A stretch of DNA of 47,756 nucleotides from Erysipelotrichaceae bacterium (GCA_963633255.1 CAVGYO010000001.1:1-47756), one strand, 5' to 3'; positions 8,366 to 37,473 are shown, counted from the first letter of the stretch. Numbers and translations are program-made. Notes: generated from the sequence alone by a model not told the origin.

Positions 8366-8377
8366 TGATTATCCAAA

Positions 8378-8635: not shown

Positions 8636-8636
8636 T

Positions 8637-9002
8637 ATGATACAGCAAGAAACAAGACTCAAAGTAGCCGACAACAGCGGCGCAAAAGAGGTACTTTGCA
8701 TTCGCGTGCTGGGCGGAACGGGCAAACGCTACGCCACACTCGGCGATACAATTGTGGTGGCCGTGAAAAGCGCGCTCCCCGCAGGCGACGCCAAAAAAGG
8801 CACCGTGTCGAAGGCTGTCGTTGTGCGCACTGCCAAAGAGGTGCGTCGCGCCGACGGCTCCTATATCCGTTTCGACGACAACGCCTGTGTGCTTCTGAAC
8901 AACGCTGGCGAAATGCGCGGTAGCCGCATATTCGGTCCCGTGGCACGCGAACTGCGCGCTACGAACATGAAAATCATTTCACTTGCGCCAGAAGTACTCT
9001 AA
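8637..9002 (+). CDS. rplN: 50S ribosomal protein uL14
   Basis: Translation [19 protein letters not shown]... Confidence 0.97.
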
Positions 9003-9034
9003 ACTTTAACCACACAAAAAACACAGTAAGTAAA

Positions 9035-9355: not shown

Positions 9356-9900
9356 TGGTAACCGATAGTATGAAACAAGATTACAAGGAACGCATCGTTC
9401 CCGCATTGATGAAACAATTCGGATACAGTTCCGTGATGCAATGCCCCCGACTCGAGAAAATAGTGCTGAACCAAGGTCTTGGCATCGCAGTGGCCGACAA
9501 AAAAATTGTCGATACCGCCATCGAAGAGATGACCGCCATCACGGGTCAAAAAGCCGTTCAAACACTCTCGAAAAAAGACATCTCGAACTTCAAAGTGCGT
9601 AAAAAAATGCCTATCGGCGTGCGCGTAACTTTGCGCGACAAGAAAATGTACGAATTTTTGGAGCGTTTGATTCGCGTGGCTCTGCCTCGTATTCGCGACT
9701 TCAAGGGAATTGAATCGAAACTCGACGGCCGTGGCAACTACACGCTGGGCATCACCGAGCAGATTATCTTCCCCGAAATCAACATCGACAGCATCCAAAA
9801 GTTGCTGGGCATGAACATCACATTCGTAACATCGGCCAAAACCGACGAAGAAGGTCTTGCTCTGCTCAAAGAGTTCGGATTACCATTCAAGAAAAACTAA
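9352..9900 (+). CDS. rplE: 50S ribosomal protein uL5
   Basis: Translation ...[28 protein letters not shown]...; ATGA overlap with rplX. The exact start (9352 or 9355) is ambiguous. Confidence 0.95.
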
Positions 9901-9918
9901 CTAAAAAGGGACAAGAAA

Positions 9919-10188
9919 ATGGCAAAAGAGTCAATGAAAGCCCGCGAGGTGAAACGCGCCAAATTGGTGGCCAAATATGCCGAAAAGCGCAAAGCCTTGA
10001 TAGCGGCTGGCGATTACGAATCGCTGCAACTTTTACCCAAAAACGCTTCGTATGTGCGCCTGCACAACCGTTGCAAAATTTCTGGTCGTCCGCGCGGCTA
10101 TATGCGTCAATTCGGCATCTCGCGCATCGACTTCCGCGAATTGGCTTCGGCTGGATTGATTCCGGGCGTGAAGAAAGCAAGTTGGTAA
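9919..10188 (+). CDS. rpsN: 30S ribosomal protein uS14 (89 aa, single Cys, zinc-independent type)
   Basis: Translation [16 protein letters not shown]...GVKKASW; no CxxC pairs. Confidence 0.96.
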
Positions 10189-21717: not shown

Positions 21718-21749
21718 AAAAAAAATCGGGAACTTTTGTCCCGATTTTT
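21718..21749 (-). terminator. Intrinsic terminator downstream of the giant gene
   Basis: Stem atcggga (21724-21730) / tcccgat (21738-21744), flanked by an A-run (21718-21724) and a T-run (21744-21749). On the minus-strand RNA the hairpin is followed by a U-tract. It starts 15 nt after the stop codon at 21764-21766. Confidence 0.7.
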
Positions 21750-21763
21750 TAGCGCAGGTTGGT

Positions 21764-24700
21764 TCAATAGGCGAATTTGCCCTGCGAAACACGCTTTTCG
21801 TCGTTGTAGTAGAATACATAGATCAGCGTTTTGCCCGTGCGTTGTATGCGAATGATAGTGCCAGCCGCGCCTGCATCGCAAATATCGTCGTTCGGGTCGA
21901 TGAGCGGCACATCGTGCTTGGTAATCAGTCGGCCAGCGGTGTCGTATATGGCCACCGACACATTGTTGCGCCGTGTGCTGGCTTTGAACAGGTCGCCGCC
22001 GAGCATTGTCCAGCAAACATCGTCGGCTGTTGGTGCGTCGCCCGGGTTGATGTCCGACTCGATGAACTTGATGGTGTAGGTTTGTGTGGTGCCATCTTCG
22101 GCGGTGCAATAGATGTACTGCGTGAAGCGGTCGGTGCGGTCTTCGCCATATTCTACCGTCTGCAGCAGCGAGTCGCTCGCTATGCCCTCGATGGTCGGAA
22201 TAGTGGTGGCACCTTTGGCAATGGTGTAAGTGTATTCAAACACATTCGGGTCGAAATCTTTCAGCGATTTGTGGTCGATGATGATGTCTTTCAGCAGAGC
22301 ATTGTCCGATTTTTCGATGGCAAACATCAGCACATAGACATTTGTTGCGCCGTTTTGTGCCGTTACCGAAACGAGAATGACAGCGTTGTTATCGACAATA
22401 GTCGTGAGCGTATCGCCCGCAGCAACGGTTACCGTTTGTCCCGCAGCGATGGTATTGACGGTATTTTCGTGCGACAAATAGCCTTCGTTGGTGAGTGTCA
22501 GCGTGGTGTCGGTCAGTTGCAGCGTTTGTGTGGCATAGGCCAAGGTTACCGTTTGGTCTTTGTCGCCTTTGGTATAGCGCACATTGGCCAGTTTCGGGAA
22601 ATCGTTTTCGGTTGTGCCAAGGTCGAACAACAGGTCGTAACTCGTCGAATCGGGGTGGAATAGCGGCTCGAAATTCGGGTAGATAACATCGACGAAATAG
22701 AGGTCTTTCAGTTTGTTGTTGTTCGACAGTGCCACGGTGAAGTTCAGTATGTACTCGTTGGTCTGCATTTCGTCTTGCGAAACAACGCTGATGCTTGCGC
22801 TGCCGTGTGTGCCGAGGCTGTCGGTAGTGAGTTCGTGTGTGTCGAGCGTTACCGATTTGTAGGCCGTTTCGGGCAGTTGCGTTTTCCAAGTGATGCTGGG
22901 CAGTTGTTCGGTGCCGTAGGGCAGTGTGATGTAGTATTCGTAGTCGTCGCTCGCAAAGTTTTCTTCTACTACGAAGTTGGCTGCCTGCGTACTGAGCGAA
23001 TCGCCATTGAGGAAAATCATTTGCAGGAAAGCGTTGTCCGACAATTTTGTGGTGAATGTGATGTGGTAAACGGTCGTGGTGCTGCCGTCGGCGGCGGTTA
23101 CGGTGATGGTGGCCGTGTTTTCGCCACGCACAACCTCAACGATTTGTTCTGCATCGCCCTTTTCGTAGGTGATTTCGAGATTGCTAACGGTTGTTCCGTA
23201 GGGCAGCGTAACATTGTATTCGGTTGTTTCTTTGTCGAAATTATCGATGGCAGTGCCGTTTAGCACGATGTTGTTCAGTGTGGCGATGTTCGATTTTGCA
23301 ACGCTGAAACTGAATGTGTAGGTGCGGCTGTTGCCGTTTTCGGCGGTTACGGTCAGTGTGTAGTGGCCGTTCAGTCCGTCGAAAATCGAATCTTTCGTTA
23401 CGGTTTGGAACGCATCGCCCGCTTCCCAAGTGATTTGCGGAATGGTGGTTGTGCCGTAGGGCATCACGCTGTCGTACTGCGTGGTGTTCGGGTCGAATCT
23501 GTCGTAAGGCAAATTGTCGAAGAAGATGTTGCGCAGCGTATCGGTGGGCGAGAGCAGCAGCGTGTTGTGCACGGTGTAGGTGCGTGTTGTGCCGTTTTCG
23601 GCGGTTACACGAATGACTGCGTTGTCGTTCAGTGTCGTCATCTGGTGCAGAATTTCGACGGTTTGATAAGCGTCGCTCCGCTCAAAATCGATGGTAACTT
23701 CGTCGCGTGTGCCGATGTCCCATGTTACATGGTAGTCGTTGGTGCGACCCGCAAAGGCGTGGTCGGCCGTGTAGTGTGTTCCCGACAGTGCCAAAGGTTC
23801 TTCTATGCCGTTGATATTCAGCACGATTGCCGCCAGCGTGTCGTTGGCCGATTTTTCGACGATGAAATGCAGCGTGTAGGTACGGCTGTTGCCCTTTTCG
23901 GCGGTTACGGTCAATGTCGATGTGGCGTTGTAGTCGTCGCTCACTTGCGTGTCGATGGTTACAGTTTGCCACTTATCGCCTTTGCCGCGGCTATCGTTGT
24001 CCGATGGCGCAATGGCTGGCCACTGGCGCGTGCCTATGGGCAGTGTGATGGTGTATTCGTACACATCGGCGGCAAAATTCTTGTCGGCGGCGAAGTTGGT
24101 TTGCCCCATCAGCAGCGAATCGCCATCGAGGTAAATCATTTTCAGTGTGTCGCTTTCCGACAGTTCCACATCGAAGAAGATGTTGTATGTTTTGGTCGTT
24201 TCGCCGTCGGGTGCGGTAACGGTGATGAGCGTTGTTTCGCGCACGCCGTTGTTGCTGATGGCGACGCTTTGTCCATCTTCGTCAAGCACAGCCACAATGT
24301 CGGGACGAATTTCGGTGCCAGCGGGCAGTGTGATGGTGTAGTCCGTTTTGTCGCTGTCGAAATCGGAAAGTGGCTCGCCGTCCACTTCGATTTGCGCCAA
24401 ATTGGTATTGCTAGAGCCTGCGGGTTTCGTGAAGGTAACGGTGTAGGTCTTCGTGTTGCCGTTTTCGGCCGTAACTGTGATAGTTGCCGCTTTCAGATTG
24501 ACGGTCAAATCGATTTTCTGTTGGAAGCGATCTTCGCTCGTGTAGTCGATGACTGGGATTTCGTTTTTCGACAGCAAAATGCTGTAATCCAGCGTGTTAG
24601 CATCAAACTCGGCGATGGCGATATAATCCACAGCAATGCTCGTCAGGTCGGCGTTGGCCGATTTTTCGGCAACGAAATTGAGCGTATAGACCTTTTCGGT

Positions 24701-27700
24701 GCCATCTTCGGCGGAAACCGTTATGGTCGTCGCTTCGTTCAGACCGTTCTGCTCCATGGCGATGGTTTGGTTGGCATCGTTGGCGCGGAAGGTGATGTTC
24801 GGCATTGTAGGTTCGTCTATCTTCGGATTGGCGCACCGCAGCGTGATGTTGTAGTCGGTAATATCGGCCGCAAACGCATGGTCTGCCGTGTATTCGGCGG
24901 CATCGGTGTTGAGCAGGCTGCCGTTGAGCATGATGGCCGCCAAAGTAGCGTCGCTCGAGGGCAGGTGGCGCAGACGAACGACCGTGGTTTTGGTGGTTAC
25001 ATTGTCTTCGGCGGTAACTTCGAATGTTGCTTCGGCAAAATAGTTGTCGCTTGCGCTACTTGCACTGCGTTGTGCTGCATTGTTGGTCGCTTGTCCGTTG
25101 AGCGTGAATTGCGCCTTTATCTGTTGACCAGCGTCGCCGTGAATGGCCTCGATAACCACAGGTTCGGTGCGGTCGATGGCGTATTCGTAAACGCTGCTGT
25201 TGAAGTTTTGCAGTGCTTGGCCGTTTATCAGAATGTTGGCCAAATCGGCATTATCCGACGGTGTGCGGTCGAACTGCAGCGTGTAGCGGTTGGTGTTTGT
25301 GCCGCGCACTTGCCAAACAACGCTGCCTTTTGTGATGGTTTGCGCCACAGTGTCGGTTGCGTCGATGCGCTCGAAAGTGGTGGCTGGTTGCGTGTTGGCG
25401 GTGTGGTGATAGTCGAATTGGTCTTGGTCGAAACTGTCGAAAGGCGTGTCGCTCAAAATGCTGATATTCGCCAATTTACCCGAAGTAACGGGTGCTTCCC
25501 AACCGAACACAATTTGGTAAGTCTTGGCGTCGGTGCCGTTTTCGGCCAGCACATCTAAACGCGTGGTATCGGCAGCGAACAGAGTTACCTGCTGTCCGTC
25601 GGACTGCTTGGTGAACGACACATTTGGCAACTGTTCGTTGGCGGTCAAGGTAACGCTGTAGTTCTCTGTGGCGCTGTCGAACGCTATGTCGTGTCCATCG
25701 ATGGTGATATTGGCCAAAGTGGCATCGTCCGATTTTTTCTCGACACGGTGGAGCAGATATTTTTGCGTATCTTTTCCGTTTTCGGCCACCACGATGATGG
25801 TATCGGTCTCGCCGTTTGTGCCGAAGCGCAGCGTTTGGTACATATTGCCACGAATCGCCACAATGTCGGGTGCGAAACGACTGCCGTTGGGCACTTGCAC
25901 GGTGTACTCAAGAGTTTTGGCGGCAAAATCGACCAGCGTGTCGCCATCGACGATGATGCCCGCCAGCGCAGCGTTGCTCGACAGCGGTCGGTTCAGATTG
26001 ACGATGTATTGGCTCGTGTTGCCGTCTTCGGCTTTCGATGTGATGGTTACAACGCGCGTTTTGTACTGTCCGCTGCAGTTGTCGGTCTCTTCGCTGTAAC
26101 TGTAGGTGTACTCTTGGTCGCTCACCTCGCCTTCGAAGGTCAGCACAGGGTCGCCTTGTAGTTCGGCATCGACTTTTACCGCCTGAATCCAGTTGCCGTC
26201 GTATTTGCCTTTGAAGCCTTTGGCCTCTTGCCCATTGACAAAAATTTTGGCGATTTTGCTGTTGTAGGCAAATTTCACCCAATCGACCAACAGCGTCGAA
26301 GCGGCCTTGCTTTTCAGCGCGCTGGCGTTGTCGCTTTCGCAACTGTTGATGGTGATGTTCATCATCGCTGGATTCTCTATCGTATTGTCGATGAGCGACA
26401 GTTCCATTGTTTTCCAACTGTTGTTGAAGTTGCGGTCGGTGAACTCTTTGGCGTATTTGCCGTTGTCGAGTGTGTAGGCAAAACTCATGTTGCCAACATT
26501 CGATTGCGACACAGGATTGTACGACATCGATACATGGTCGGGTGTGTTGCGGAACGGAATGCCGCCAAAAATCGATGTTGCGGACGAACCGTCGTTGAGG
26601 GTGGCGGTCATGTCGCCGAGCGTCATTGCACCGGGCATTGAGCCGTCTATCACTTTGCTGTAGGCGGTGGTGAGTTTGGCGTTGCTGCCGTCTTGCGTTA
26701 CCTCGCTGCCCGGCGTGAAAGTGCCTTTCGAGAAGAGGCTACCGATGGGCAGTCCAGCGATTGTTGCGCTACTTTTGATTTCGGTGGCGGTGGCAACATC
26801 GGCCAAAACCGTCCAGCCAGTGGGCTTCTGCGCCGATGTGGTGGCTTGTGCCGCTTCCCATTGGGCAAAATCGGCGTTTGGAATCACATCGTTGGTGTAG
26901 AAATAGTAGATGGTGTAGGTGGCGCTGCTGTCGTCGTCTTTGCCGAGAACGGTTATTTTGGTGCGTTTGGTGTTGCTCTCCTCTTCGTCGATGGTGGCGG
27001 TGGTGTTGTCGTAGGTGTAGGCAATCTCGGCGTTCGAGGTGTTGTCGTTGTCCACGCTCACCACATATTGGTATTTGTACGGGTCGAAATCGGCAATGGG
27101 CGTGCCATTCACCGAAATGCCAGTCAGTGTGGCTTGCGGTTTGGCCAGTTGCGGCGTGAGCGTATAAACCACATCGGCCACGCCTTCGCGGTTGGCTTTG
27201 ACGGTGATGGTGGTTGTGCCGTAGATGCCGCCGTTGTCGATGAGTACGGTTTGCTCGTCGTACTTTTTGAGACAGGTGATTTTGGGCAATACGGTCGTGC
27301 CGTAGGGCAGCGTGATGGTGTCGTTCAAAGCCGAAATCATGCCAACGCCATCGACAATGTAGTACTGCAAACCGTTGTCTTCGTCGCTTTCAGCCACTTC
27401 GAAGGCGATGTTGTAGGTGCGTTCGTCGCCATTTTCGGCTATCACGGTGAGGTGTGCGGTGTTGCGCAAACCAGCGTCGTGCAGTTTGATGCGCTGCCCG
27501 AGTGTTTGCCCATCTTTTTTGCCCAGTTCCCAATGAATGGCGGGCGCAACTGTGGTGCCGTAGGGCAGTTTTGCTACATAGTCCAGCACTTCGGCATCGA
27601 AGTCGGGCAGTAGTTCGTTGGCGTTGTCCACCGTCAGATTTTCGAGCGCGGTGATGTCCGATTTTTCTACATCGAAATAGATGCGATAGTCGGTCGAATT

Positions 27701-30700
27701 TTCGCCGTTTTCGGCCACTACACGCACGATGGTGGTGTCGTTCACGCTGTTGTAGTAGATGGTGATGGTCTGTCCGTCGTTGGCTGCCACGGGATTTATC
27801 GGTCGAACGGCAGTCTCGCCCCAAGCGAGCAGGTGCGTGTATTCGAGCGTTTCGGGCGTGAACCCATCGATGGATTTGTACTCGTTGCCGTCGTAAATTT
27901 GCAGGTCTTGCAGTTGGGCGTTGTCGCTTTTTTCAGCATCGAAATTGATTTTATACTCTTTGTTGTCGCCGTTTTGGGCGGTTACAACTATCTGCGTGCC
28001 GTTCAGTCCAGCGTTTGCTATGGCAATGTATTGTGTCGAGTCGATGTCGAGTTGTATATCGGGCGTTGTGGTGCTGGTCGTGCTGGTGTATTCGCTCGTT
28101 TCTGGCTGAAAATCAGCAATTTCGTCGCCATCTACACGGATGCCGTTGATGGTCGCTGCGGTCATCGGTGCGGCTTGGTAGGCGATGGTGTAGGTGAGGC
28201 GCGTTGTTCTGTCGGGCGCGGTTACCGCTATTTGCGCCGTGCCTGTGAGTACAGGTTCGGTTACGGCGTAGGTTTGCCCATCTACATTGCCTTCGAAGGT
28301 CAGTTGCGGTGCTTTGGTTGCACCAGCGGTCAGCGTGTGCGTGTAGTCGAGGGTTGCGCTCTCGAATCCGTTCAGCGGCGTGCCGTCGAGGACGATGTTT
28401 TTCAGCGTGGCATCGCTCGATATGGCGCGTGTGAAGGCAATTTTGTAGGTGGTTACGGTTTCGTCTTCGGCTTTCACAGCGATGGTTGTGCCGCCCCAGC
28501 CGTTGTTCGACACGAGTACGGTTTGCGTTTCGTTGCCTTTTTCGTAGCCAATGGTCGGCAGCGTGGCAGCGTAGGGCAGTTCTACGCTATATTCGAGCGT
28601 CTCGGGCGCAAAATCCGCTATGGTTGCACCATTAATCAGAATGTTGCTGAGCAGACTATTGCCGTTCAGCAGGCGGTCGGTAAAGAGAATTGTGTAGATG
28701 TTCGGGTCGCCAATTTCGGGCGTTACGGTGATTTTGGCTGTGCCGAGCAGCGCAGGTTTCACAATGCTCACACTCTGCCCCTCGTTTTTCTCTACACTGA
28801 TGCTGGGACAGGCTTTTACAACTGTAGTGTCGAGCAGATAGGCGTATTTGTTGGTTTTGGGGTCGAAATTCGGCAGTGCCACACCGTCGATGTAAATCTG
28901 GTTCAGCAGACGGTTCGACGATTTTTTTACCGAGAACAGGAGCGTGTAGTTGCGCACTGTGCCGTCTTCGGCGGTTACGGTGATGGTGGTTGTGCCGTTC
29001 ACATCGCCAGCAACAATCGTTACAGTCTGCGTGCTTTCGGCTTTGATTGGCGAAATTGCGGGCAGTTCGGTGGTGCTGCTGGGCAGTTCTATGGCGTATT
29101 CGAGCGTTTCGGGTGCAAAGTTGCTCAATGCTGTGCCGTCTATTTTTATGCCGCTCAAGGCTGCATTGCTCGATTTTTGTACCGAAAAGTGTATGATGTA
29201 AACCGCTGTGGCACCCGATTGCGCCCGCACGGTGATTTTTGTGTCGCCGTCCACGCCGTCTTTGCGCATGCTGATGGTTTGCCATGCGTCGCCAGCGGTG
29301 TAGGCGATGTTGGGCAGGGTGGTGGTGCCGCTACGGAGTGTTATGCTGTATTCCAGTTGCGCTGGGTTGAAGTCGAGCGTGTAGCCATCGATGGCGATGT
29401 TGCCGAGTTGCGTGTTGTCGGCCTGTTTCACCGAAAAGTTGATGGAGTAGGTGCTCGACGAGCCGTCTTGCGCTTTTGCAATGATGCGCGTTGTGCCGCT
29501 CACGCCGTTGGTGATGATGGTTGGCTCGCTTTGGTAACTGTCGCCTTTGGTGTAGGTGATGGCGGGCAGTGCCGTGGTGCCGATGGGCAGTTCGTATGTG
29601 TAATTGAGCGTGTATTCGTCGAAATTCGGCAGCAATACGCCGTCGAGATAGATGGCTTTCAGGGTCGAAACCGACGATTTGGCGGCGGTGAACACAATTT
29701 TGTAGGTGCATTTTGCGCCGCTTGCCGCTGTTACAACTATTTTGTATGTGCCTTCGATGCCGCTGATTCCGCTTGCATCGGTGGCGATGGTCTGGTATTC
29801 GTCGCCCTGTTCGTAGGTTATTTTGGGCAGACTGGTTGTGCCGAGTGGCAGATTTTGATAATAGGTCGTTTTTTCAGCGTCCCAACCCTCTATTGCTACG
29901 CCGTCGAGTTTCAAACTTTTCAGGTAGCAGTAGGTCGATGCGGTGATTTTGAACGACAGTTTGTAGGTGCGTGTGGTGGTGTTGCCAGGGGCTTTCACGG
30001 CAATGTTGTAGGTGCCAGTGCAACTGCCGTCGGCAATTTTCACGCCATTGCTCACGGTGATGGTTTGCGCACCCGCTGCGTATGCCGATGTGTAGGTGAT
30101 GGTGGGCAAAGTTGTTGTGCCGAGCGGCAACTCTACGGTGTAGTTGTTTTTGGTTGGGCTGAAACCAGCGATGGATTTACCGCCAACTTGTATGTCTTGC
30201 AGCGTGTTGTCGGTCAGTTTGCCTATCGAAAACGCAATGCGATAGGTGTTTGTTGCACCGTTGGCGGCTTTCACGCTGATGGTGGCTGTGCCTGTCGGTG
30301 TGGTGGCTTGCGTAATGCTGATGGTCTGCCCGTCGTCGCCTTTGGTTACGCTCACAACTGGGGCTTCGGTGGTGCCGTAGGGCAGTTCTACGCTATATTC
30401 GGTGATGTAGCCGTTGTAGTTTGGCACCGAGGTGGTGATGTCGCCCACTGTGTACGAAATGCTTGCGGGGCGGTTGTTCGACGACTGCTCGGCCACAAAT
30501 TTGATTTTGTAGGTCGATGTGCGCTTGCCGTCTTCCGATTTCACGGTGATAACTACAGGTTCGCCGCCTACCGTTGCTTTCGAACGGTCGATGCTGATTT
30601 CGCTGCCCGACAGTACGCGCCCCGAGAAAGAAACGCTTGTGCCGCGGCAGTTGGTGAGTGTGCCCACACCACGCTTGGCAAACATATCGGGAATCTCCGT

Positions 30701-31585
30701 CGCACCAAGTCCAAGGGCGTAGGTCTGCTCTTCACCGTTGTTTTTCTTCGGGTCGAAGCCGCTCCAACGGCGGTTGTTCACATACAATTCGTCGATATTC
30801 GAACTGTAAATCAACTCTACATCGTCGATATAGAGGTCGTTGCCCGGATAGATGCCGCTGTTGGCACGGAAATTGGGATAGTTGCCCGCCGAAAAAATTA
30901 CATTACACTTTTCTGGCGTGTCTGCTTTGCCCGTGTAGTAAATCGGCACTTTTATCTGTGTCCATTCCGAGTAGGTTTTGTACTCTTTTACCCAACCTTC
31001 GGCCACTTGGTCGGCAAATTGGCTGGTGGAACATTTGTTGCCGTCGAGGGCTTGGCGTATATCCGACTCTTCGTCGGTGTGCGTGGTCGAGGTGCAACCA
31101 CCGCTCTTGCCTGTGTATGAGTTGCCTACCGATGTGCCTTTCCACGAGTAGAACATCAGGTGGAAATACTCTTTGTCGGTGTTGTTGCCAGTGCGCTTTA
31201 TCCAAACGCTCATGGTGTCGGGGTGGTATTTGAAACTGATGCCGCCGTCGCAACCTGCCGTGGCTTCGCTCACTTTGGTGATGCTTTCGAGATACGACCA
31301 CGGTTTTCCCAAGGCCATATAGCCAGGCGCAGGCTCGGTAATGCCAGCCGCACCAACCTCCTTGTCGGTTACGTATGCGCACGAACCGCCGTTGCGACCT
31401 TCGCGCTTGTACATGAATGTGAATTTGAAACCGACTTGCGTTACATTCGAGCCGTGCCAATTTTTCAATTGCGCATCGCCGTTGAACGAATCGCTCCAAT
31501 CTTCAAATCCCGAGTCGGGCAGTTGCTGCGCTATGGCTGCAAGAGCCAAGGTCAGCAAGTATATGGTAATTCTATATCGTCTCAT
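21764..31585 (-). CDS. Giant (3273 aa) T9SS-sorted surface protein: signal peptide, PCMD-like domain, ~15 cadherin-like beta-sandwich repeats, second PCMD-like domain, ~15 more repeats, Por-type C-terminal domain
   Basis: The start was moved to MRRYRITIYLLTLALAAIAQQ (cat at 31583-31585). The N-terminal region LPDSGFEDWSD...LYIDDVELIYSS (~30800-31525) resembles the PCMD family. There are about 30 repeats of ~85-95 aa with the pattern S-x-N-x-L-x-I-x-(V/I)-D-G...F-x-P-x-x-x-x-Y...LP-x-GTT...I-x-V-x-AE(D/N)G...TY-x-I-x-F. A second PCMD-like block, NDVIPNADFAQWEAAQ...LLVDWVKFAYNS, lies at ~26255-26895. The C-terminus ...VSVAIYDTAGRLITKH...TLIYVFYYNDEKRVSQGKFAY resembles TIGR04183. Confidence 0.9.
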   Translation of the reverse strand: MRRYRITIYLLTLALAAIAQQLPDSGFEDWSDSFNGDAQLKNWHGSNVTQVGFKFTFMYKREGRNGGSCAYVTDKEVGAAGITEPAPGYMALGKPWSYLESITKVSEATAGCDGGISFKYHPDTMSVWIKRTGNNTDKEYFHLMFYSWKGTSVGNSYTGKSGGCTSTTHTDEESDIRQALDGNKCSTSQFADQVAEGWVKEYKTYSEWTQIKVPIYYTGKADTPEKCNVIFSAGNYPNFRANSGIYPGNDLYIDDVELIYSSNIDELYVNNRRWSGFDPKKNNGEEQTYALGLGATEIPDMFAKRGVGTLTNCRGTSVSFSGRVLSGSEISIDRSKATVGGEPVVITVKSEDGKRTSTYKIKFVAEQSSNNRPASISYTVGDITTSVPNYNGYITEYSVELPYGTTEAPVVSVTKGDDGQTISITQATTPTGTATISVKAANGATNTYRIAFSIGKLTDNTLQDIQVGGKSIAGFSPTKNNYTVELPLGTTTLPTITYTSAYAAGAQTITVSNGVKIADGSCTGTYNIAVKAPGNTTTRTYKLSFKITASTYCYLKSLKLDGVAIEGWDAEKTTYYQNLPLGTTSLPKITYEQGDEYQTIATDASGISGIEGTYKIVVTAASGAKCTYKIVFTAAKSSVSTLKAIYLDGVLLPNFDEYTLNYTYELPIGTTALPAITYTKGDSYQSEPTIITNGVSGTTRIIAKAQDGSSSTYSINFSVKQADNTQLGNIAIDGYTLDFNPAQLEYSITLRSGTTTLPNIAYTAGDAWQTISMRKDGVDGDTKITVRAQSGATAVYIIHFSVQKSSNAALSGIKIDGTALSNFAPETLEYAIELPSSTTELPAISPIKAESTQTVTIVAGDVNGTTTITVTAEDGTVRNYTLLFSVKKSSNRLLNQIYIDGVALPNFDPKTNKYAYLLDTTVVKACPSISVEKNEGQSVSIVKPALLGTAKITVTPEIGDPNIYTILFTDRLLNGNSLLSNILINGATIADFAPETLEYSVELPYAATLPTIGYEKGNETQTVLVSNNGWGGTTIAVKAEDETVTTYKIAFTRAISSDATLKNIVLDGTPLNGFESATLDYTHTLTAGATKAPQLTFEGNVDGQTYAVTEPVLTGTAQIAVTAPDRTTRLTYTIAYQAAPMTAATINGIRVDGDEIADFQPETSEYTSTTSTTTPDIQLDIDSTQYIAIANAGLNGTQIVVTAQNGDNKEYKINFDAEKSDNAQLQDLQIYDGNEYKSIDGFTPETLEYTHLLAWGETAVRPINPVAANDGQTITIYYNSVNDTTIVRVVAENGENSTDYRIYFDVEKSDITALENLTVDNANELLPDFDAEVLDYVAKLPYGTTVAPAIHWELGKKDGQTLGQRIKLHDAGLRNTAHLTVIAENGDERTYNIAFEVAESDEDNGLQYYIVDGVGMISALNDTITLPYGTTVLPKITCLKKYDEQTVLIDNGGIYGTTTITVKANREGVADVVYTLTPQLAKPQATLTGISVNGTPIADFDPYKYQYVVSVDNDNTSNAEIAYTYDNTTATIDEEESNTKRTKITVLGKDDDSSATYTIYYFYTNDVIPNADFAQWEAAQATTSAQKPTGWTVLADVATATEIKSSATIAGLPIGSLFSKGTFTPGSEVTQDGSNAKLTTAYSKVIDGSMPGAMTLGDMTATLNDGSSATSIFGGIPFRNTPDHVSMSYNPVSQSNVGNMSFAYTLDNGKYAKEFTDRNFNNSWKTMELSLIDNTIENPAMMNITINSCESDNASALKSKAASTLLVDWVKFAYNSKIAKIFVNGQEAKGFKGKYDGNWIQAVKVDAELQGDPVLTFEGEVSDQEYTYSYSEETDNCSGQYKTRVVTITSKAEDGNTSQYIVNLNRPLSSNAALAGIIVDGDTLVDFAAKTLEYTVQVPNGSRFAPDIVAIRGNMYQTLRFGTNGETDTIIVVAENGKDTQKYLLHRVEKKSDDATLANITIDGHDIAFDSATENYSVTLTANEQLPNVSFTKQSDGQQVTLFAADTTRLDVLAENGTDAKTYQIVFGWEAPVTSGKLANISILSDTPFDSFDQDQFDYHHTANTQPATTFERIDATDTVAQTITKGSVVWQVRGTNTNRYTLQFDRTPSDNADLANILINGQALQNFNSSVYEYAIDRTEPVVIEAIHGDAGQQIKAQFTLNGQATNNAAQRSASSASDNYFAEATFEVTAEDNVTTKTTVVRLRHLPSSDATLAAIMLNGSLLNTDAAEYTADHAFAADITDYNITLRCANPKIDEPTMPNITFRANDANQTIAMEQNGLNEATTITVSAEDGTEKVYTLNFVAEKSANADLTSIAVDYIAIAEFDANTLDYSILLSKNEIPVIDYTSEDRFQQKIDLTVNLKAATITVTAENGNTKTYTVTFTKPAGSSNTNLAQIEVDGEPLSDFDSDKTDYTITLPAGTEIRPDIVAVLDEDGQSVAISNNGVRETTLITVTAPDGETTKTYNIFFDVELSESDTLKMIYLDGDSLLMGQTNFAADKNFAADVYEYTITLPIGTRQWPAIAPSDNDSRGKGDKWQTVTIDTQVSDDYNATSTLTVTAEKGNSRTYTLHFIVEKSANDTLAAIVLNINGIEEPLALSGTHYTADHAFAGRTNDYHVTWDIGTRDEVTIDFERSDAYQTVEILHQMTTLNDNAVIRVTAENGTTRTYTVHNTLLLSPTDTLRNIFFDNLPYDRFDPNTTQYDSVMPYGTTTIPQITWEAGDAFQTVTKDSIFDGLNGHYTLTVTAENGNSRTYTFSFSVAKSNIATLNNIVLNGTAIDNFDKETTEYNVTLPYGTTVSNLEITYEKGDAEQIVEVVRGENTATITVTAADGSTTTVYHITFTTKLSDNAFLQMIFLNGDSLSTQAANFVVEENFASDDYEYYITLPYGTEQLPSITWKTQLPETAYKSVTLDTHELTTDSLGTHGSASISVVSQDEMQTNEYILNFTVALSNNNKLKDLYFVDVIYPNFEPLFHPDSTSYDLLFDLGTTENDFPKLANVRYTKGDKDQTVTLAYATQTLQLTDTTLTLTNEGYLSHENTVNTIAAGQTVTVAAGDTLTTIVDNNAVILVSVTAQNGATNVYVLMFAIEKSDNALLKDIIIDHKSLKDFDPNVFEYTYTIAKGATTIPTIEGIASDSLLQTVEYGEDRTDRFTQYIYCTAEDGTTQTYTIKFIESDINPGDAPTADDVCWTMLGGDLFKASTRRNNVSVAIYDTAGRLITKHDVPLIDPNDDICDAGAAGTIIRIQRTGKTLIYVFYYNDEKRVSQGKFAY

Positions 31586-31625
31586 GATGGTAATTCTGTT
31601 TGATGGTTTCTCTTCTGCCAATGCA

Positions 31626-34520
31626 CTATTCCTCTGTGATGTTTATCGGAATTTCTACTTCGATTGGCTCGCAAAGTTCCAGATTGGCAGGCGTGAAAGT
31701 GCCTTTTGCAATCCAAAGACAGGCCGAAAATGTGGTTGGCGTGTCGGCGTTGAACTGCCATGTGCCAGCCACCGACGATTCGACATGCACTTCTACATCG
31801 CTCAAACTGATGCTGCCGCCTTTGGCTACGGTTATCGGGCGTGTGGCAGCAAAAAATTCGGCGCGTGTTTTGCGCAGTATCACACTATATATTACAGTGT
31901 CCGAAGGCAGATAGTTGTTGTCGCCCGCCTGCCACGCCTTGATTATCAACTCTTTGTCGAGCGCATCGGCAGTCGCGGTGATGTTCAGTGTACCCTCACC
32001 TTCGATTTTGGCATACGCCTGACCGCTGCACGGCTCTATGGCGTAACTTACAGGCAGTTTCGATGTGGCGTAAGCGTCGAGCGTGAGGCTGTCCATCACA
32101 CCAATGCTGTCGGGCATCGACCACACAATTTTCTGCGCTTGCCGATTGACTGTAACGACCAGCGTGTCGTGCGCATTGTCGTAAAGGGCTTGGTTGTATG
32201 GCACAAATGTAATCTCTTGCTTGATGGCGCTTCCTGCGTTCGGCACAATGTTTTTGTTGGTCCACATAAAGTCGCCTTCAATCTCCTCGCCCGTAACGGT
32301 GGTGGCTTTGCCGCCCACTATCTCTACTTCGCTCAAGGTCTGTCCGTAGGTGATTTCGTTGCCAACGGTGGGCAGCGTCAGTTCGGGAATGCCTTTGAAA
32401 ATTTCGAGCGCAATGCTTATCGGCGTGGCGTCGTTGTATTCGTCGTTGCCGGGGCAGGTGGCGGTGATGGTAACGGGCGCGTCGGGGTCGGCTTTCAGAA
32501 AGACGAGTTGGTTGTTTTCGTTGAGTGTCAAGGCTGTTTCGTCCGAAATTTCGTAGAAAATCGGCAGTCCCGATACGGGATTCACTTTGTTCAGAATCCA
32601 AGTTTGCGTGGTGGCAATGCTGTCGCGCAGTTGCCAACTCAAATTTTGGTTGCGCTTGCTCACGCTGGTGGTGATGGGAATGCGCAGTGTGGCGTCTTTT
32701 TCGTTGCTGATTATCAGCGCATTTTCGTCGTTTTCGATGGCCGATGGCGTGTAACTTACGCTGATGGTGGCAGTACCATATTCGCCGCAGTTGCCTGTGC
32801 CGATGGTGGCTGGTTCAACCGAAAATTCGGCATTCTCGCTCTCCAAAGCCACATTGAGCAGATCTTGCAGGTTCGAGTAGGTTACGGTTACTGTTTTGCG
32901 TGTGGTTGTGCCATACTGTGCGTCGATGGCCAATGCACTGGCGTTTGCTTCTACAAAGTGGGCGCGCGTAACCTGCACATTTTTGAACACTTTGTAGCCC
33001 GTAGCACCCGCTTCGGTGAAGAGTTGTATCTTGGTCGCTCGGCGATCTAAATCGAAGGGACCAAAGTGGTAGTAGGTGTTTTTCTTGTCGAATTTGCAGG
33101 TGGCAATTTTGTCGCTCCACGAGCCGTTGATGTACTGTTTCACATAGAGGTCGCCGCCCCAAAACAGCATGATGGCTTCGCATTTGGCATCGAACGAGAG
33201 TTGCCCAGCGGGACTGCCGTCGAGCGTGTACTCTTGGCTGCTGATGGTCGAAAACGATTTTTCGGCGGTTTCGTCGCATACAAATGGCTCGCTCAAACAA
33301 CTGGCGTTCGGGTCGCGCACACGCACGGTGCGCACATACGAGGTGGCGGCGTACTCTGCATTGCCTGCCTGAATGGCGCGAATGGTGGCTGTACCTGCGT
33401 TGCTGGTCGAGATGGTCAGCACGCCGTCCGCAAGCGATACCACATTGCTGGCGTTGTCCACTATTTCGTAGGTGATGGGCAGCCCTACCGACGATTCGGC
33501 GGTGAGCGTTGTCGGCGCATCGCCCCACTTGAAGTTGAGCGACTGTGTCCAACTGATTTTCTGCGTCAGCAGGTTGGTAACCTCCAAACGCAGCGTGTCG
33601 CGCACTTCGTCGATGGTCTCGTTGCCCGCTTGGTAGGCGGTGATTTCGGCCGTGCCTGCTGCAACGGCTATCAGTTGCCCGTTCTCGATTTTCAGCACCG
33701 ATTCGTCGCTCGATTTCAGTTCGGTGAGTTCCAAACCGCTCGAAGCCACCACAAACGGACTCTCTATCACATCGCCGCGCGAAAGCATGGTAACCTCGTC
33801 GTCCCACCACACAATGTATTGCGGCTCTGGCTTGGCGTAGCCTTTTAGCGTGATGGTCGTCCAACCCGACTGTTTGTCGTTGTTGTAAATGGTTACTTTG
33901 GCGGTTTTGTTGCCTTTGGTTGTTGGGTGAAAGTCCACTGTAATCTCTGCCGTACCATAACTGCACAACGCCGCCGCAATGCTCGTGCTACTCAAACTGA
34001 AATCCGTGGTGTTGTCAATCGAAAGGCTCAACGCATTCACATTGCTCCAGTTTACCGAAAACTTGGCATCCTGCGACGAACCGCCCACTTCTACCGTGCC
34101 GCAATCGACCGTGCTTGCCGACGGCTCAACATAGGTGGCTTGGGTCAGAACAATGTTACTAATTGTCTTTTTAAGTGTTCCCGTTCCCTTGAACTCTAAT
34201 TTTGAAACGACTTTTCTGCCAAAATTAAAACTTTGACTTGTCGACGACTCGCCACTGATTATCGTAGCCGAAGAGCCGTCGGAGTAAGTGGCAGTTACAG
34301 TTACACCACCAATGGCCAGCGAACCTTTAGTGTAACTGAATGTCAGTTGGTCGCATGGTCTTGCTGGGTTTATCGTGAATGTTTTTGTCGAACTTTTCGA
34401 CGAATTACTCATGATTTCGTACGATCCGCCGTCGTTTATCAAGTAGCATTCTGCCCACGCTTGCGGCGCAAACGCTGTCAGCAACAGGATAAATGCAACG
34501 AATATATGATTTTTTCTCAT
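31626..34520 (-). CDS. Secreted 964-aa Ig-like (Big_2-type) / MBG-like repeat protein, no T9SS CTD or lipobox seen
   Basis: The start was moved to MRKNHIFVAFILLLTAFAPQAWA|E (cat at 34518-34520). Four modules begin Q(K/N)(I/L)xW. One carries the classic Big_2 signature SSDESVLKIENGQLIAVAAGTAEITA. TYG-containing modules (EITYGQTLSEVEI) are also present. The stop is 40 nt upstream of the giant gene's start. Confidence 0.88.
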   Translation of the reverse strand: MRKNHIFVAFILLLTAFAPQAWAECYLINDGGSYEIMSNSSKSSTKTFTINPARPCDQLTFSYTKGSLAIGGVTVTATYSDGSSATIISGESSTSQSFNFGRKVVSKLEFKGTGTLKKTISNIVLTQATYVEPSASTVDCGTVEVGGSSQDAKFSVNWSNVNALSLSIDNTTDFSLSSTSIAAALCSYGTAEITVDFHPTTKGNKTAKVTIYNNDKQSGWTTITLKGYAKPEPQYIVWWDDEVTMLSRGDVIESPFVVASSGLELTELKSSDESVLKIENGQLIAVAAGTAEITAYQAGNETIDEVRDTLRLEVTNLLTQKISWTQSLNFKWGDAPTTLTAESSVGLPITYEIVDNASNVVSLADGVLTISTSNAGTATIRAIQAGNAEYAATSYVRTVRVRDPNASCLSEPFVCDETAEKSFSTISSQEYTLDGSPAGQLSFDAKCEAIMLFWGGDLYVKQYINGSWSDKIATCKFDKKNTYYHFGPFDLDRRATKIQLFTEAGATGYKVFKNVQVTRAHFVEANASALAIDAQYGTTTRKTVTVTYSNLQDLLNVALESENAEFSVEPATIGTGNCGEYGTATISVSYTPSAIENDENALIISNEKDATLRIPITTSVSKRNQNLSWQLRDSIATTQTWILNKVNPVSGLPIFYEISDETALTLNENNQLVFLKADPDAPVTITATCPGNDEYNDATPISIALEIFKGIPELTLPTVGNEITYGQTLSEVEIVGGKATTVTGEEIEGDFMWTNKNIVPNAGSAIKQEITFVPYNQALYDNAHDTLVVTVNRQAQKIVWSMPDSIGVMDSLTLDAYATSKLPVSYAIEPCSGQAYAKIEGEGTLNITATADALDKELIIKAWQAGDNNYLPSDTVIYSVILRKTRAEFFAATRPITVAKGGSISLSDVEVHVESSVAGTWQFNADTPTTFSACLWIAKGTFTPANLELCEPIEVEIPINITEE

Positions 34521-34653
34521 CTCTTTTCTCTTTTGTTTGGTTTGAAAAATCTCTCGTACTCTCGTGTACGCGTGCGCGCGAGAAACGGTTGCGCACAATG
34601 CAGCAAAGCCCAACGCACGAGGGTGCATTAGGGAGTGCAGGGAAGGTGTGGAA

Positions 34654-35019
34654 TTAGCCCGAGTAGAGCGAAATGCGCAGCAGATGGCGTTGCGGCAACT
34701 CTTTGGCTGCCTCCATCAACAAGCGCAAGTTGGCCAGATTGGCCGCCATAAACGCATCGTACGCATTATGCGCTCGATGCTCGTACTGCGCCCGCAGTTT
34801 TCGGAAAAGTGTGCGGATATCGGGAACAATGTCGGTCGCTACAGGCGCATCGGTCGCACCGCCAGCCACAATCTCGTAGCGGCTTTCGACCTTATTGCGC
34901 TTCTGCACAGTGCAGAACATCTCGTCGCGCAGAGTAACGAAACCAGCCCAAAAGAACCAATAAATCAGTCCTTTGTATAGGTTTACGGCAACATCTTTGA
35001 GTAAATGTATCAAAGCCAT
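34654..35019 (-). CDS. Orphan 121-aa ORF, candidate first gene of the giant-protein operon
   Basis: ATG start about 20 nt downstream of a consensus promoter. Codon usage (CGC, CTG/TTG, GCG/GCC, TCG) matches neighbouring genes. It has a hydrophobic N-terminal segment (LIYWFFWAGFV) and a helical C-terminus. No recognisable family, and an open antisense frame exists, so the call is tentative. Confidence 0.5.
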   Translation of the reverse strand: MALIHLLKDVAVNLYKGLIYWFFWAGFVTLRDEMFCTVQKRNKVESRYEIVAGGATDAPVATDIVPDIRTLFRKLRAQYEHRAHNAYDAFMAANLANLRLLMEAAKELPQRHLLRISLYSG

Positions 35020-35038
35020 AGGCGTTCCCTTTACGCTG

Positions 35039-35071
35039 CAAAGTTACAACTTTATTTCTATAATATGCAAA
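35039..35071 (-). promoter_or_regulatory. Bacteroidetes-type promoter driving the 121-aa ORF / giant operon
   Basis: On the minus strand: TTTG (rc of 35068-35071), a 21-nt spacer, then TAACTTTG (rc of 35039-35046). The ATG is at 35019. Confidence 0.6.
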
Positions 35072-35257: not shown

Positions 35258-35296
35258 GAAAGTTCCCGACTCTTTTTTCAGAATCGGGAACTCTTT
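35258..35296 (-). terminator. Intrinsic terminator downstream of the EF-G paralog
   Basis: 9-bp stem: agttcccga (35261-35269) pairs with tcgggaact (35284-35292). On the minus-strand RNA it is followed by uucguuuuua. It lies about 20 nt after the stop at 35314-35316. The loop is long (14 nt). Confidence 0.5.
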
Positions 35297-35313: not shown

Positions 35314-37473
35314 TTATTCGTCCTTTTGCGTGGCTTCGTACTCTTTCAGCAGTTTGTCCTGAACATCGGCAGGGCAGAGTTCGTACGAGGCGAACTTCAT
35401 GGTGAACGATGCGCGGCCACCCGAGAGCGAACTGAGCGATGTGGAGTAGTTCGACAACTCTTTGAGCGGCACTTTGGCGGTGAGTTTCTCAAATCCTTTC
35501 ACGCTCTCCATGCCCATGATGATGGCGCGTCGGCCTTGCAGGTCGCCCATCACATCGCCCATGCGGTCGCTTGGCACAAGCACTTCGAGGTCGTAGATCG
35601 GCTCCATTACTTTCGGCCCCGCATTGCGGAATGCCTCGGCAAAAGCGTTGCGGCCAGCCAGTCGGAACGAGATTTCGTTTGAATCGACGGGGTGCATTTT
35701 GCCGTCGTACACAATCACACGCACATCGCGCGCATACGAGCCTGTGAGCGGCCCCTGCTCCATGCGGTCCATCACGCCTTTCAGAATAGCGGGCAGGAAG
35801 CGTGCATCGATGGCACCGCCCACAATGCTGTTGATGAATACCAGTTTGCCGCCCCATTCCAGCGGAATTTCTTGCGTGTCGCGCACGCTGATTTTGTACT
35901 CTTGACCGCCAAATTTGAAGGTGTCGGGCACCGGCATTCCTTCGGTGTAGGGCTCTACTATCAGATGCACTTCGCCAAATTGGCCAGCACCGCCCGACTG
36001 CTTTTTGTGGCGATAGTCGGCGCGCGCCGCCTTGGTGATGGTTTCGCGGTAAGGAATTTTCGGCTCGTCGTACACAATGGGCAGTTTGTCGTTGTTCTCG
36101 ATGCGCCATTTGAGCGTGCGCAGGTGAAATTCGCCCTGTCCATAAACGATGGTCTGCTTCAACTCTTTCGATTGCTCGACAATCCATGTGGGGTCTTCTT
36201 CGTGCATACGGGTGAGAATGGCACTCAGTTTCTCCTCTTCGCCACGCGTTTGCGGACTGATGGCGCGGCGGTATTTTGGGTCGGGATATTTGATGCGCGG
36301 GAACTCATAGTCGCAGCCTTTGCCGTCGAGTGTGTTGCCCGTGCGTGTGTCTTTCAGTTTTACGGTTGCGCCGATGTCGCCAGCCACCATTTCGCTCACC
36401 TCTTCGCGGTTTTGTCCCGAAACGGAGAATATCTGGCTGATGCGCTCTTTGCCTTGGTTGCGGCTCACATTGGTCAGGTCGTCGCCAGCGTGCAGTGTGC
36501 CGCTCATCACTTTGAAATACGATACCTCGCCGATGTGCGGCTCTACGCTCGTTTTGAACACAAAAATGCTGGTTGGTCCGTTGGGGTCGGGCGCAATTTC
36601 TACACCTTCGGTGGTAACGGGTTTGGGCATATCGGTAACGAAAGGCACCACATTGCCCAAAAATTCCATCAGTCGGCGCACGCCCATCGAGCGGCCCGAG
36701 CAGACGCAGAACACGGGGAATATGTCGCGCCCAATCAACCCTTTGCGAATGCCGTTGCGCATCTCGTCTTCGGTGAGCGAACCCTGTTCAAAGTATTTGT
36801 CCATGAGACCTTCGTCGTTTTCGGCGGCGGCCTCAATCAGTTTGTTGTGCAGTTCGTTGGCTCTCTCTTGCTCTGCATCGGGAATTGGCAGAATTTCGGG
36901 CGCACCGCCTTCGGGTTTCCAGCGATACATCTTCATCATCAGCACATCGACAACGGCGTTGAACTCTGGACCAACATTGAGCGGATATTGCACCAGCACG
37001 GTTTTTGCACCGAAACTGTCGCGCAACTGCTCAACGGTTTTGTTGAAGTCCGATTTCTCGGTGTCCAACTGGTTGCAAAGGAAAATGACAGGTTTTTTGA
37101 ACTTCTCGGTGTAGCGGAAGTGGTTTTGTGTGCCAACTTCGACGCCATATTGCGTATTCACAAGAATCACGGCTTGGTCGGTAACCTCGAGCGAGGTGAT
37201 GGCGCCGCCGATAAAGTCGTCGTTGCCCGGACAGTCGATGATGTTCAACTTTTTGCCGAGCCATTCGGCGTGAATCACCGTGGGGAATACCGAGTAACCA
37301 TACTCCTGCTCCACGGGAAAATAGTCCGACACGGTGTTTTTGGCATCAATCGTGCCGCGGCGTTTTATCACGCCACTCTCGTAGAGCATGGCTTCTACAA
37401 GGGTGGTCTTTCCTGCTCCAGAACTTCCCATCAACGAGATGTTCTTGATTTCGTTGGCTTGGTAAACTTTCAT
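35314..37473 (-). CDS. Elongation factor G paralog (EF-G2-like) with degenerate GTPase motifs
   Basis: 719 aa with five-domain EF-G-like length and similarity. The P-loop GSSGAGKT is intact. Switch II is DCPGN (rc of 37222-37236) instead of DTPGH. G4 is NQLD (rc of 37063-37074) instead of NKMD. There is no RGITI switch-I motif. Confidence 0.93.
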   Translation of the reverse strand: MKVYQANEIKNISLMGSSGAGKTTLVEAMLYESGVIKRRGTIDAKNTVSDYFPVEQEYGYSVFPTVIHAEWLGKKLNIIDCPGNDDFIGGAITSLEVTDQAVILVNTQYGVEVGTQNHFRYTEKFKKPVIFLCNQLDTEKSDFNKTVEQLRDSFGAKTVLVQYPLNVGPEFNAVVDVLMMKMYRWKPEGGAPEILPIPDAEQERANELHNKLIEAAAENDEGLMDKYFEQGSLTEDEMRNGIRKGLIGRDIFPVFCVCSGRSMGVRRLMEFLGNVVPFVTDMPKPVTTEGVEIAPDPNGPTSIFVFKTSVEPHIGEVSYFKVMSGTLHAGDDLTNVSRNQGKERISQIFSVSGQNREEVSEMVAGDIGATVKLKDTRTGNTLDGKGCDYEFPRIKYPDPKYRRAISPQTRGEEEKLSAILTRMHEEDPTWIVEQSKELKQTIVYGQGEFHLRTLKWRIENNDKLPIVYDEPKIPYRETITKAARADYRHKKQSGGAGQFGEVHLIVEPYTEGMPVPDTFKFGGQEYKISVRDTQEIPLEWGGKLVFINSIVGGAIDARFLPAILKGVMDRMEQGPLTGSYARDVRVIVYDGKMHPVDSNEISFRLAGRNAFAEAFRNAGPKVMEPIYDLEVLVPSDRMGDVMGDLQGRRAIIMGMESVKGFEKLTAKVPLKELSNYSTSLSSLSGGRASFTMKFASYELCPADVQDKLLKEYEATQKDE

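Follow-up and report, generated by a model that had tools for sequence, protein, structure and literature searches.

A putative three-gene operon of uncultured gut Paludibacteraceae encoding a giant all-beta repeat protein, a candidate glycan-binding surface fiber

Layout of the unit and architecture of the giant protein

We analyzed a 47,756-nt stretch of DNA deposited as Erysipelotrichaceae bacterium (GCA_963633255.1, CAVGYO010000001.1:1-47756; the whole stretch is hereafter called the window), focusing on a unit of three minus-strand open reading frames (ORFs) that encode proteins of 121, 964 and 3273 amino acids (aa) and occupy 28% of the window. The 121-aa gene is separated from the 964-aa gene by 133 nt, and the latter from the gene for the giant 3273-aa protein by 40 nt. 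A preceding reading by a model that had only the DNA before it (the sequence-only reading) had described the same three genes, with the 40-nt gap, as a single unit framed by a promoter and a terminator; the ORFs were confirmed, and both framing signals can be read directly and are conserved in relatives. In the direction of transcription, with the parts of the giant gene listed separately, the unit comprises the following features:

35039-35071, minus strand: Bacteroidetes-type promoter, TTTG-N21-TAACTTTG, read directly, about 20 nt 5' of the ATG of the small gene
34654-35019, minus strand: small gene, a putative orphan, 121 aa (ORF)
34521-34653, minus strand: spacer between the small gene and the 964-aa gene, containing a conserved box and a weak hairpin
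31626-34520, minus strand: 964-aa gene (ORF, start placed at the ATG preceding the signal peptide)
21764-31585, minus strand: giant gene, 3273 aa (ORF)
31526-31585, minus strand: signal peptide of the giant protein, aa 1-20, presumed cleavage between MRRYRITIYLLTLALAAIA and QQ, Gln at +1 (read from the sequence)
30809-31525, minus strand: domain A, aa 21-259, PCMD-type beta-jelly roll, putative glycan-binding head (fold and homologs)
26888-30808, minus strand: arm 1, aa 260-1566, 15 cadherin-like beta-sandwich repeats (self-derived repeat hidden Markov model, HMM)
26267-26887, minus strand: domain B, aa 1567-1773, mid-length jelly roll and remote relative of domain A (AlphaFold2, AF2, model)
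22049-26266, minus strand: arm 2, aa 1774-3179, 15 cadherin-like repeats (self-derived repeat HMM)
21767-22048, minus strand: C-terminal domain, aa 3180-3273, 94 aa (AF2, conservation)
21718-21749, minus strand: intrinsic terminator, AAAAAATCGGGAC-AAAA-GTTCCCGATTTTTTTT (hairpin and T-run)

The giant protein starts with a signal peptide that is kept in 120 relatives and is presumably cleaved at the site given above, which we placed by general cleavage-site rules. Its layout, delimited by a repeat HMM built from the giant protein itself, is conserved in all 120 retrieved relatives, whose lengths range from 3087 to 5433 aa. Each of its 30 repeats is detected by this HMM with an independent E-value of 1e-17 to 1e-32, and one of the arm 2 repeats contains a long insertion (aa 2960-3094). 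The Cadherin-like family PF12733, which the sequence-only reading had listed for an HMM scan, matches the giant protein (92.2 bits, compared to a cut-off of 24.2), and it is the sole Pfam family to do so.

For the two jelly rolls and the C-terminal domain (A+B+C), a structure was obtained by modeling a chimera of the three window segments, aligned to full-length homologs, with AF2. The resulting model reaches a mean predicted local distance difference test score (pLDDT) of 86.5, with domain B being confidently modeled, and its top Foldseek matches in the PDB are 3hbz (BT2081, E 4e-8) and 3s30 (BVU_0247, E 4.5e-7), followed by CBM-like glycosidase sandwiches and a Bacteroides surface glycan-binding protein. 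In 4 of 18 aligned giant relatives, the PCMD model PF13201 finds a match (best E 1e-9), so that the assignment of the putative heads to the PCMD type is supported by homology via relatives and by the fold. Domain A weakly matches the domain B region in the relatives P0149 and P0164. BT2081 is a polysaccharide utilization locus (PUL)-associated protein; its jelly roll has a pocket that putatively accommodates carbohydrate, as well as a calcium site of structural type, formed by Glu122 early in the domain and Asp351 late in it (PMC2954218). Domain A displays a conserved FE..W motif at its start and a conserved DD motif at its opposite end, roughly where these calcium ligands lie, as matched by position and without superposition.

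The near-central position of domain B is a striking regularity of the giant family. In all 121 members (P0132-P0251 and the window protein; 3087-5433 aa in total length), the center of domain B lies at 0.507-0.538 of the protein length, with arm repeat counts such as 15/15, 19/19, 20/20, 25/24 and 28/25. We do not claim a constraint that keeps the arms equal, since random insertion into either arm would give a similar balance according to a binomial estimate; in P0142, the two arms show neither a clear mirror pattern nor a clear parallel one in where their insertions lie. An origin of the arms by duplication of a head-plus-15-repeat unit was also considered and rejected, as the 30 x 30 matrix of repeat scores lacks a diagonal at offset 15.

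Turning to expression, the two-box pattern TTTG-N19-22-TAnnTTTG occurs 5 times in the window, compared to 0.76 expected occurrences. The TAnnTTTG box is positionally kept 20-35 nt 5' of the small gene in L001, L003, L005 and L015, relatives whose small proteins share no more than 27-46% identity. The terminator of the unit folds with -16.1 kcal/mol (z = -4.0), and the same stem recurs 3' of the giant gene in L001 and L003. On the coding strand of the two internal spacers, no consensus -7 box (TAnnTTTG) was found. The spacer between the small and the 964-aa gene contains a conserved box, GTGCGTTGGGC, at 34608-34618 and a weak 5-bp hairpin at 34555-34570; a conserved RNA structure or terminator in this spacer was rejected, since the consensus fold reaches only -6.6 kcal/mol. 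Given the lack of an internal -7 box and of a conserved strong internal hairpin, co-transcription of the three genes is plausible. We also considered whether frameshifting might fuse the 964-aa protein to the giant protein, and rejected this because the giant protein has its own conserved signal peptide and because its frame is open just 14 nt 5' of the stop codon of the 964-aa gene.

Two sequence elements of the unit deserve separate mention. The stem octamer GTTCCCGA/TCGGGAAC is common to the giant terminator and to that of the upstream EF-G-like gene (35259-35294), with 6 copies in the window compared to 1.35 expected; it is this stem that is found 3' of the giant gene in the two relatives mentioned above. 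The spacer box, (C/G)(A/T)GCGTTGGGC / CACGTTGGGC, is kept in the window, in L001 (~9915-9925) and at the equivalent positions of L003 and L005; it persists although the adjoining small protein is only ~45% identical, and no conserved secondary structure surrounds it.

Conservation of the three genes and their genomic setting

The order small gene, 964-aa gene, giant gene is found in 10 of the 11 species-representative genomes that were retrieved with a profile of the small protein, an outcome that bears out the synteny in relatives for which the sequence-only reading had proposed a survey. Overall, the arrangement is present in the window, L001-L005, L017-L025 and L027; it is held at 59-63% identity of the 964-aa protein and also at 50% (L005), where the small gene is present though uncalled in the annotation. 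Partial combinations occur as well: L015 and L026 lack the 964-aa gene and have the small gene directly 5' of the giant gene, L006 has the 964-aa and giant genes without the small gene, and in most relatives the giant gene stands alone (L012-L014 and L028, with giant proteins at 36-41% identity). These partial combinations suggest that the giant protein is the core of the unit and the small protein its closest companion, with the 964-aa gene representing an insertion within one subclade. They also make a fixed two-component fiber with an accessory protein, as envisaged in the sequence-only reading, unlikely. L017-L020, which are GTDB species representatives from one set of metagenome-assembled genomes (MAGs; 'H076xx cleanbin'), carry the operon on contigs labeled Acutalibacteraceae, Segatella copri, Leyella stercorea and Flexilinea, suggesting mis-binned contigs or mislabeled bins.

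The small protein consists of two conserved blocks, LYKGLIYWFFWA.F..RDEMFC and NLANLR.LMEAAK.LPQRH.LRISLYSG, around a variable linker. It has no match in Pfam, NCBIfam or the PDB, and an exhaustive profile search of 1.84 billion (1.84e9) representatives returned only 10 clusters; as judged from these searches, it is a true orphan. The gene behaves like a coding sequence, with 47, 35 and 70 differences at codon positions 1, 2 and 3, respectively. The protein diverges faster than its neighbors, showing ~45% identity where the 964-aa protein shows 59-63%. In all 12 distinct arrangements in which a small homolog is accompanied by downstream sequence (the 11 species-representative genomes plus L015, whose small protein is 27% identical), a giant gene follows on the same strand. 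The hydrophobic aromatic segment of the small protein reaches a best 19-residue Kyte-Doolittle mean of 1.27, less than the 1.6 usually required of a transmembrane helix, leaving a role as a membrane anchor uncertain. In L012, a 51-aa ORF (9831-9986) located directly 5' of the stand-alone giant gene gives a weak match of 11.3 bits to the aromatic motif with which the small protein begins; it contains a TAnnTTTG box and may be a remnant of the small gene or a chance match.

The 964-aa protein has a signal peptide (residues 1-23, ending in ...APQAWA before E) that was read from the sequence and is conserved in relatives. Its AF2 model (pLDDT 87) is all-beta and comprises about ten beta-sandwich domains, arranged as two copies of a pair formed by an unrecognized N-terminal sandwich and an ASH/choice-of-anchor-D-like immunoglobulin (Ig) domain, followed by Big-like and then MBG-like domains. 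Foldseek returned only generic Ig strings for this model (hydin/ASH, Aureispira GhpA, S-layer proteins), and residues 129-228 give sub-threshold matches to NF012200 (35.1 bits, cut-off 45) and PF22073 (34.6 bits, cut-off 35.5); the likeness to ASH/Cep192-type Ig or choice-of-anchor D domains is a resemblance at the fold level only. The sequence-only reading had described this protein as Ig-like and MBG-like; neither Big_2 nor MBG models match it at E <= 0.01. Distant relatives have precomputed matches to PF02368 and PF21461, in a region where the window protein is modeled as Ig-like. A search of the PDB with a profile of the protein yielded nothing useful.

Orthologs of the 964-aa protein, at 49-99% identity, are all unnamed and stem from MAGs of Paludibacteraceae or Bacteroidales. 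At 28-36% identity there are remoter relatives, most of them about 1000-1570 aa long, which occur on their own in different contexts and end either in a TIGR04183-type tail (P0106, 24.8 bits; P0104, 18.8 bits) or in a short unrecognized motif. Because some distant relatives have such tails and the operon copy does not, the latter gives the impression of a secreted Ig-string protein whose own export tail has been lost. A conserved tail of ~27 residues, K.IRDGRLYIIRNGH.YN.NGQ.VE, is shared by P0044, P0055, P0060, P0066, P0071, P0099, P0109 and P0116; examples of tail-bearing distant relatives are encoded at L007 10001-13270 and L008 10001-14524. This tail matches no NCBIfam model and may represent a further motif by which Bacteroidales sort or anchor proteins at the C-terminus.

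Pfam and NCBIfam scans detected no catalytic, SusC/D or glycosyltransferase domain in the three genes, and the AF2 models (pLDDT 86.5-87) show all recognizable modules to be beta-sandwiches of the binding or spacer type, both in agreement with the sequence-only reading. A functionally characterized family, which would have counted against that reading, did not turn up either. All relatives of the giant protein are named 'hypothetical protein' by NCBI, and neither protein names nor the literature on PF12733, PCMD and the T9SS of Paludibacter (T9SS, type IX secretion system) revealed a characterized protein in the three families.

The operon has a GC content of 0.52-0.53, compared to 0.50-0.52 for its housekeeping flanks, and it lies in the window among core genes, namely those of the S10/spc/alpha ribosomal operons, secY, map, rpoA, mutL, serS, mreB and genes for an NTP-transferase and an elongation factor G (EF-G) paralog, with the NTP-transferase gene, mutL and the EF-G paralog gene flanking it. 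Composition and gene context indicate that it is native rather than an island, and its distribution, as far as sequences reveal it, appears to be restricted to uncultured gut Paludibacteraceae. No SusC/SusD pair was found beside the operon in the window or in related loci.

Several neighboring features were noted in addition. Two genes upstream of the operon lies a gene for a secreted 995-aa nuclease (37667-40654, minus strand) with an Endonuclease_1 (Endonuclease I) domain, a lamin-tail domain (LTD) and fn3; its tail is of the regular T9SS type A, with 31.2 bits for TIGR04183, and the gene is syntenic with the EF-G paralog in L001-L004. In these relatives, which are those at 59-63% identity, the EF-G paralog and the operon are separated by two opposite-strand genes (3912-9022) that the window lacks, encoding a 1393-aa Amidase_3/CarboxypepD_reg protein and a 301-aa protein. 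The window probably has two EF-G-type genes, namely the paralog adjoining the operon (35314-37473, minus strand), which contains EF-G domains according to Pfam, and a 709-aa ORF ahead of the ribosomal-protein operon (1238-3367, plus strand), which is a putative fusA as judged from position and length alone. The high GC content gives rise to long shadow ORFs, such as 761-3430 (minus strand), which has no Pfam match.

C-terminal domain, export route and rival readings

In the AF2 chimera, the C-terminal domain of the giant protein contains seven strands within the last 97 residues (block-mean pLDDT about 77-92). Across 36 diverse relatives, it shows an IYD..G motif as well as a near-invariant G and an invariant K (...SGKF.., positions -5 and -4), and its IYD..G motif aligns with motif B of local C-terminal sorting domains (CTDs) of T9SS cargo in hhalign comparisons. 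Type A CTDs are described as Ig-like folds of seven strands with lysines that are essential and fall within the final 13 residues (PMC10202324), and the giant protein combines a Sec signal peptide and a seven-strand C-terminal sandwich with a lysine in the last 13 residues. Type B cargo, as exemplified by SprB, is marked by a C-terminal TIGR04131/PF13585 domain and by an adjacent PorP/SprF-like gene (for the latter, PMC9143113, PMC10202324); both are absent here. Neither the giant nor the 964-aa protein contains a barrel, lipobox or catalytic domain, and features of type I secretion system (T1SS) substrates are absent from the giant protein. Because the giant protein has a Sec signal peptide and none of the barrel, lipobox or T1SS features, and because the organism has T9SS cargo, T9SS is by elimination its most likely export route. 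The C-terminal domain, as modeled, is a candidate divergent outer-membrane sorting or anchoring signal.

On balance, we lean toward the reading, which we regard as moderately probable, that the unit encodes a glycan-binding surface fiber, probably exported by T9SS via an atypical C-terminal domain, together with two lineage-specific accessory genes. Its core would be the giant protein as a Sec-exported, all-beta fibrillar surface protein, in which the 15 + 15 cadherin-like spacers may hold two PCMD-type jelly-roll heads apart from each other and off the cell, one at the N-terminal tip and the other at mid-length. To judge by the number of domains, such a fiber would measure roughly 100-140 nm when fully extended. 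The heads most likely bind glycans, which would make the protein an adhesin or a glycan-capture fiber, and the most likely role of the 94-aa C-terminal beta-sandwich is that of the T9SS signal for crossing the outer membrane, for anchoring in it or for both. The 964-aa Ig-string protein, which seems to derive from a family of independent secreted proteins, a few of which have T9SS tails, and the 121-aa orphan would be accessory genes gained within one subclade, whose products may physically interact with the fiber.

A number of results weigh against this interpretation. The sequence-only reading had assigned a T9SS sorting domain to the giant protein, an assignment that could not be upheld, as TIGR04183, PF18962, TIGR04131 and the type C model all fail to match its C-terminus. 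Even among the 36 diverse relatives, TIGR04183 matches only 4 (E 0.005-0.1, the best at 0.005), all below the curated cut-off, while the type C model matches 2 (E 0.09) and TIGR04131 a single one (E 0.15). By comparison, TIGR04183 gives 20-49 bits for five ordinary CTDs of the same lineage, four of which, including that of the window nuclease with 31.2 bits, score above its 23-bit cut-off, whereas the fifth reaches 19.6; since ordinary CTDs of this lineage are recognized, the failure appears to be specific to the giant family. The hhalign comparison with seven local bona fide CTDs yields a weak and short match (P 7e-4 over 23 columns), a profile of the C-terminal domain retrieves only noise from PDB sequences, and in 527 kb of related DNA the domain was found on giant proteins only, giving no indication of a portable sorting signal. 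It either represents a divergent or new class of CTD or is no sorting signal at all. For the 964-aa protein, no CTD match was found either, leaving it without a known route across the outer membrane. As to the heads, the PCMD assignment of the sequence-only reading stands by way of homologs and fold and fails for the window protein itself, in which PF13201 has no match at E <= 10 in residues 1-300 or 1531-1870, and even BT2081 is a putative rather than a demonstrated glycan binder.

The failure of all CTD models on the giant protein when they work on neighboring CTDs, the confinement of the domain to giant proteins and the uniform naming of all relatives as hypothetical by NCBI could indicate that the C-terminal domain is not a T9SS signal, that its likeness to CTDs merely reflects a generic Ig-like fold and that the giant protein is periplasmic, released by vesicles or lysis, or anchored in another way. 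We consider this unlikely, because an acidic rod of >3000 aa with 32 beta-sandwich domains and binding heads has no obvious periplasmic role and shows no barrel, lipobox or T1SS features, because the extreme C-terminal position, the seven strands, the IYD..G motif and the terminal G-K fit the features of type A CTDs, and because some relatives do reach TIGR04183, if only at the E-values given above. A different question is whether the 964-aa protein co-assembles with the giant protein into a two-component fiber, with the CTD-less 964-aa protein being carried or captured by the giant protein and the small protein acting as an assembly factor. The 40-nt spacing and the order of the two genes are kept across 49-99% identity, and a protein that has lost the sorting tail retained by some of its relatives may need a partner. 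However, most members of the giant family have no neighbor resembling the 964-aa protein, pairs of small and giant genes occur without it, and proteins of its type stand alone elsewhere, making this scenario improbable. Moreover, we know of no described case of piggy-back export through T9SS. The term is also absent from a review of the system (PMC10202324).

That the heads are enzymes, namely PCMD-type exo-glycosidases, so that the giant protein would be a surface-tethered carbohydrate-active enzyme rather than an adhesin, is in our estimation very unlikely. Both 3hbz and 3s30 were deposited as 'putative glycoside hydrolase', Asp259 and Asp338 of BT2081 have been discussed as possible catalytic residues (PMC2954218), and domain A contains an invariant acidic EESDIR motif. 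However, enzymatic activity of BT2081 is speculation only, as hydrolase activity was never shown and the catalytic glutamates of glycoside hydrolase (GH) family 16 are lacking according to the authors (PMC2954218). In addition, the EESD motif belongs in the AF2 model to a lineage-specific insertion, where it falls on a short predicted helix and off the strand of the jelly-roll cleft, and Pfam scans of the giant protein returned no match to GH family models. It is also conceivable that no functional system exists, with the neighbors sharing a promoter region by descent and the small ORF being a regulatory leader or an unrelated fast-evolving gene. The occurrence of all partial combinations and the faster divergence of the small protein relative to the 964-aa protein are in line with this notion, which nevertheless appears extremely improbable, given that a giant gene follows the small homolog on the same strand in every arrangement, even at 27% identity, and that the conserved -7 box lies 5' of the small gene only, with no internal consensus box or conserved terminator.

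Finally, several of these ideas could hold jointly. The C-terminal domain would then be an undescribed class of T9SS signal, the 121-aa orphan a cytoplasmic or inner-membrane factor dedicated to making or exporting the giant protein, and the 964-aa protein, which has no CTD, would arrive at the surface only by docking on the giant protein. This combination is distinctly unlikely; if true, it would be the first case of partner-dependent export in T9SS.

Relation to known systems and significance

Giant repeat adhesins with upstream accessory genes are already familiar in the Bacteroidota, and the operon is not a new kind of system. With such giant T9SS-secreted adhesins as SprB and RemA (Flavobacterium johnsoniae, sprCDBF operon) and the grappling-hook protein GhpA of Aureispira, it has in common a Sec-exported, all-beta rod of several thousand residues, accessory genes located upstream in the operon and the presence of T9SS cargo in the organism; the proteins that the 964-aa protein resembles in fold include the GhpA segments 9flp and 9fly. 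However, no sequence relationship was found, the giant protein has no type B CTD and the operon no adjoining PorP/SprF-like gene, the C-terminal domain is unmatched by CTD models, and the heads and spacers are PCMD-type jelly rolls and PF12733 repeats, respectively. We know of no gliding members of the Paludibacteraceae.

BT2081 and the PCMD family (PF13201; 3hbz, 3s30) provide the best fold match of the A+B+C model, and relatives of the giant protein match PF13201, which the window copy, having diverged too far, does not. In the giant protein, conserved acidic residues are placed toward both ends of the domain, like the calcium ligands of BT2081, a comparison made by position only. Unlike BT2081, a two-domain protein of 341 aa encoded beside SusC/D-like genes, the giant protein contains the domain twice, in a 3273-aa rod outside any PUL. 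In the manner of fibrillar adhesins in general, it combines binding heads with 30 stalk repeats and a C-terminal domain at what would be the cell-proximal end, adding to this plan a second head at mid-length, an anchor of no assigned class and a conserved orphan companion. Like the nuclease encoded nearby, which is ordinary type A CTD cargo, it is built of beta-sandwich modules behind a Sec signal peptide and has an IY(D/N)..G motif and a terminal lysine in its C-terminal part; by contrast, the giant tail, which contains a DPN-containing insertion between strands, obtains no TIGR04183 score, as opposed to the clear match of the nuclease tail. What sets the unit apart from described examples is therefore the type of its heads, the duplicated head-plus-spacer layout, the unrecognized C-terminal domain and the orphan partner.

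A CTD-like C-terminal domain that is invisible to the models implies that large proteins could escape catalogs of T9SS cargo that rely on TIGR04183 and TIGR04131, and the small orphan that travels with the giant gene offers a tangible candidate for an accessory function of a new kind. Paludibacteraceae are common, uncultured Bacteroidales of guts and digesters, whose attachment to substrates or hosts is almost wholly undescribed. Within a small core-genome region, 13 kb are devoted to one putative fiber, and relatives of the giant protein make up hundreds of clusters in metagenomes. Should the heads indeed bind glycans, the fiber would probably be a main device for the attachment of Paludibacteraceae to substrates or hosts, outside the Sus/PUL framework.

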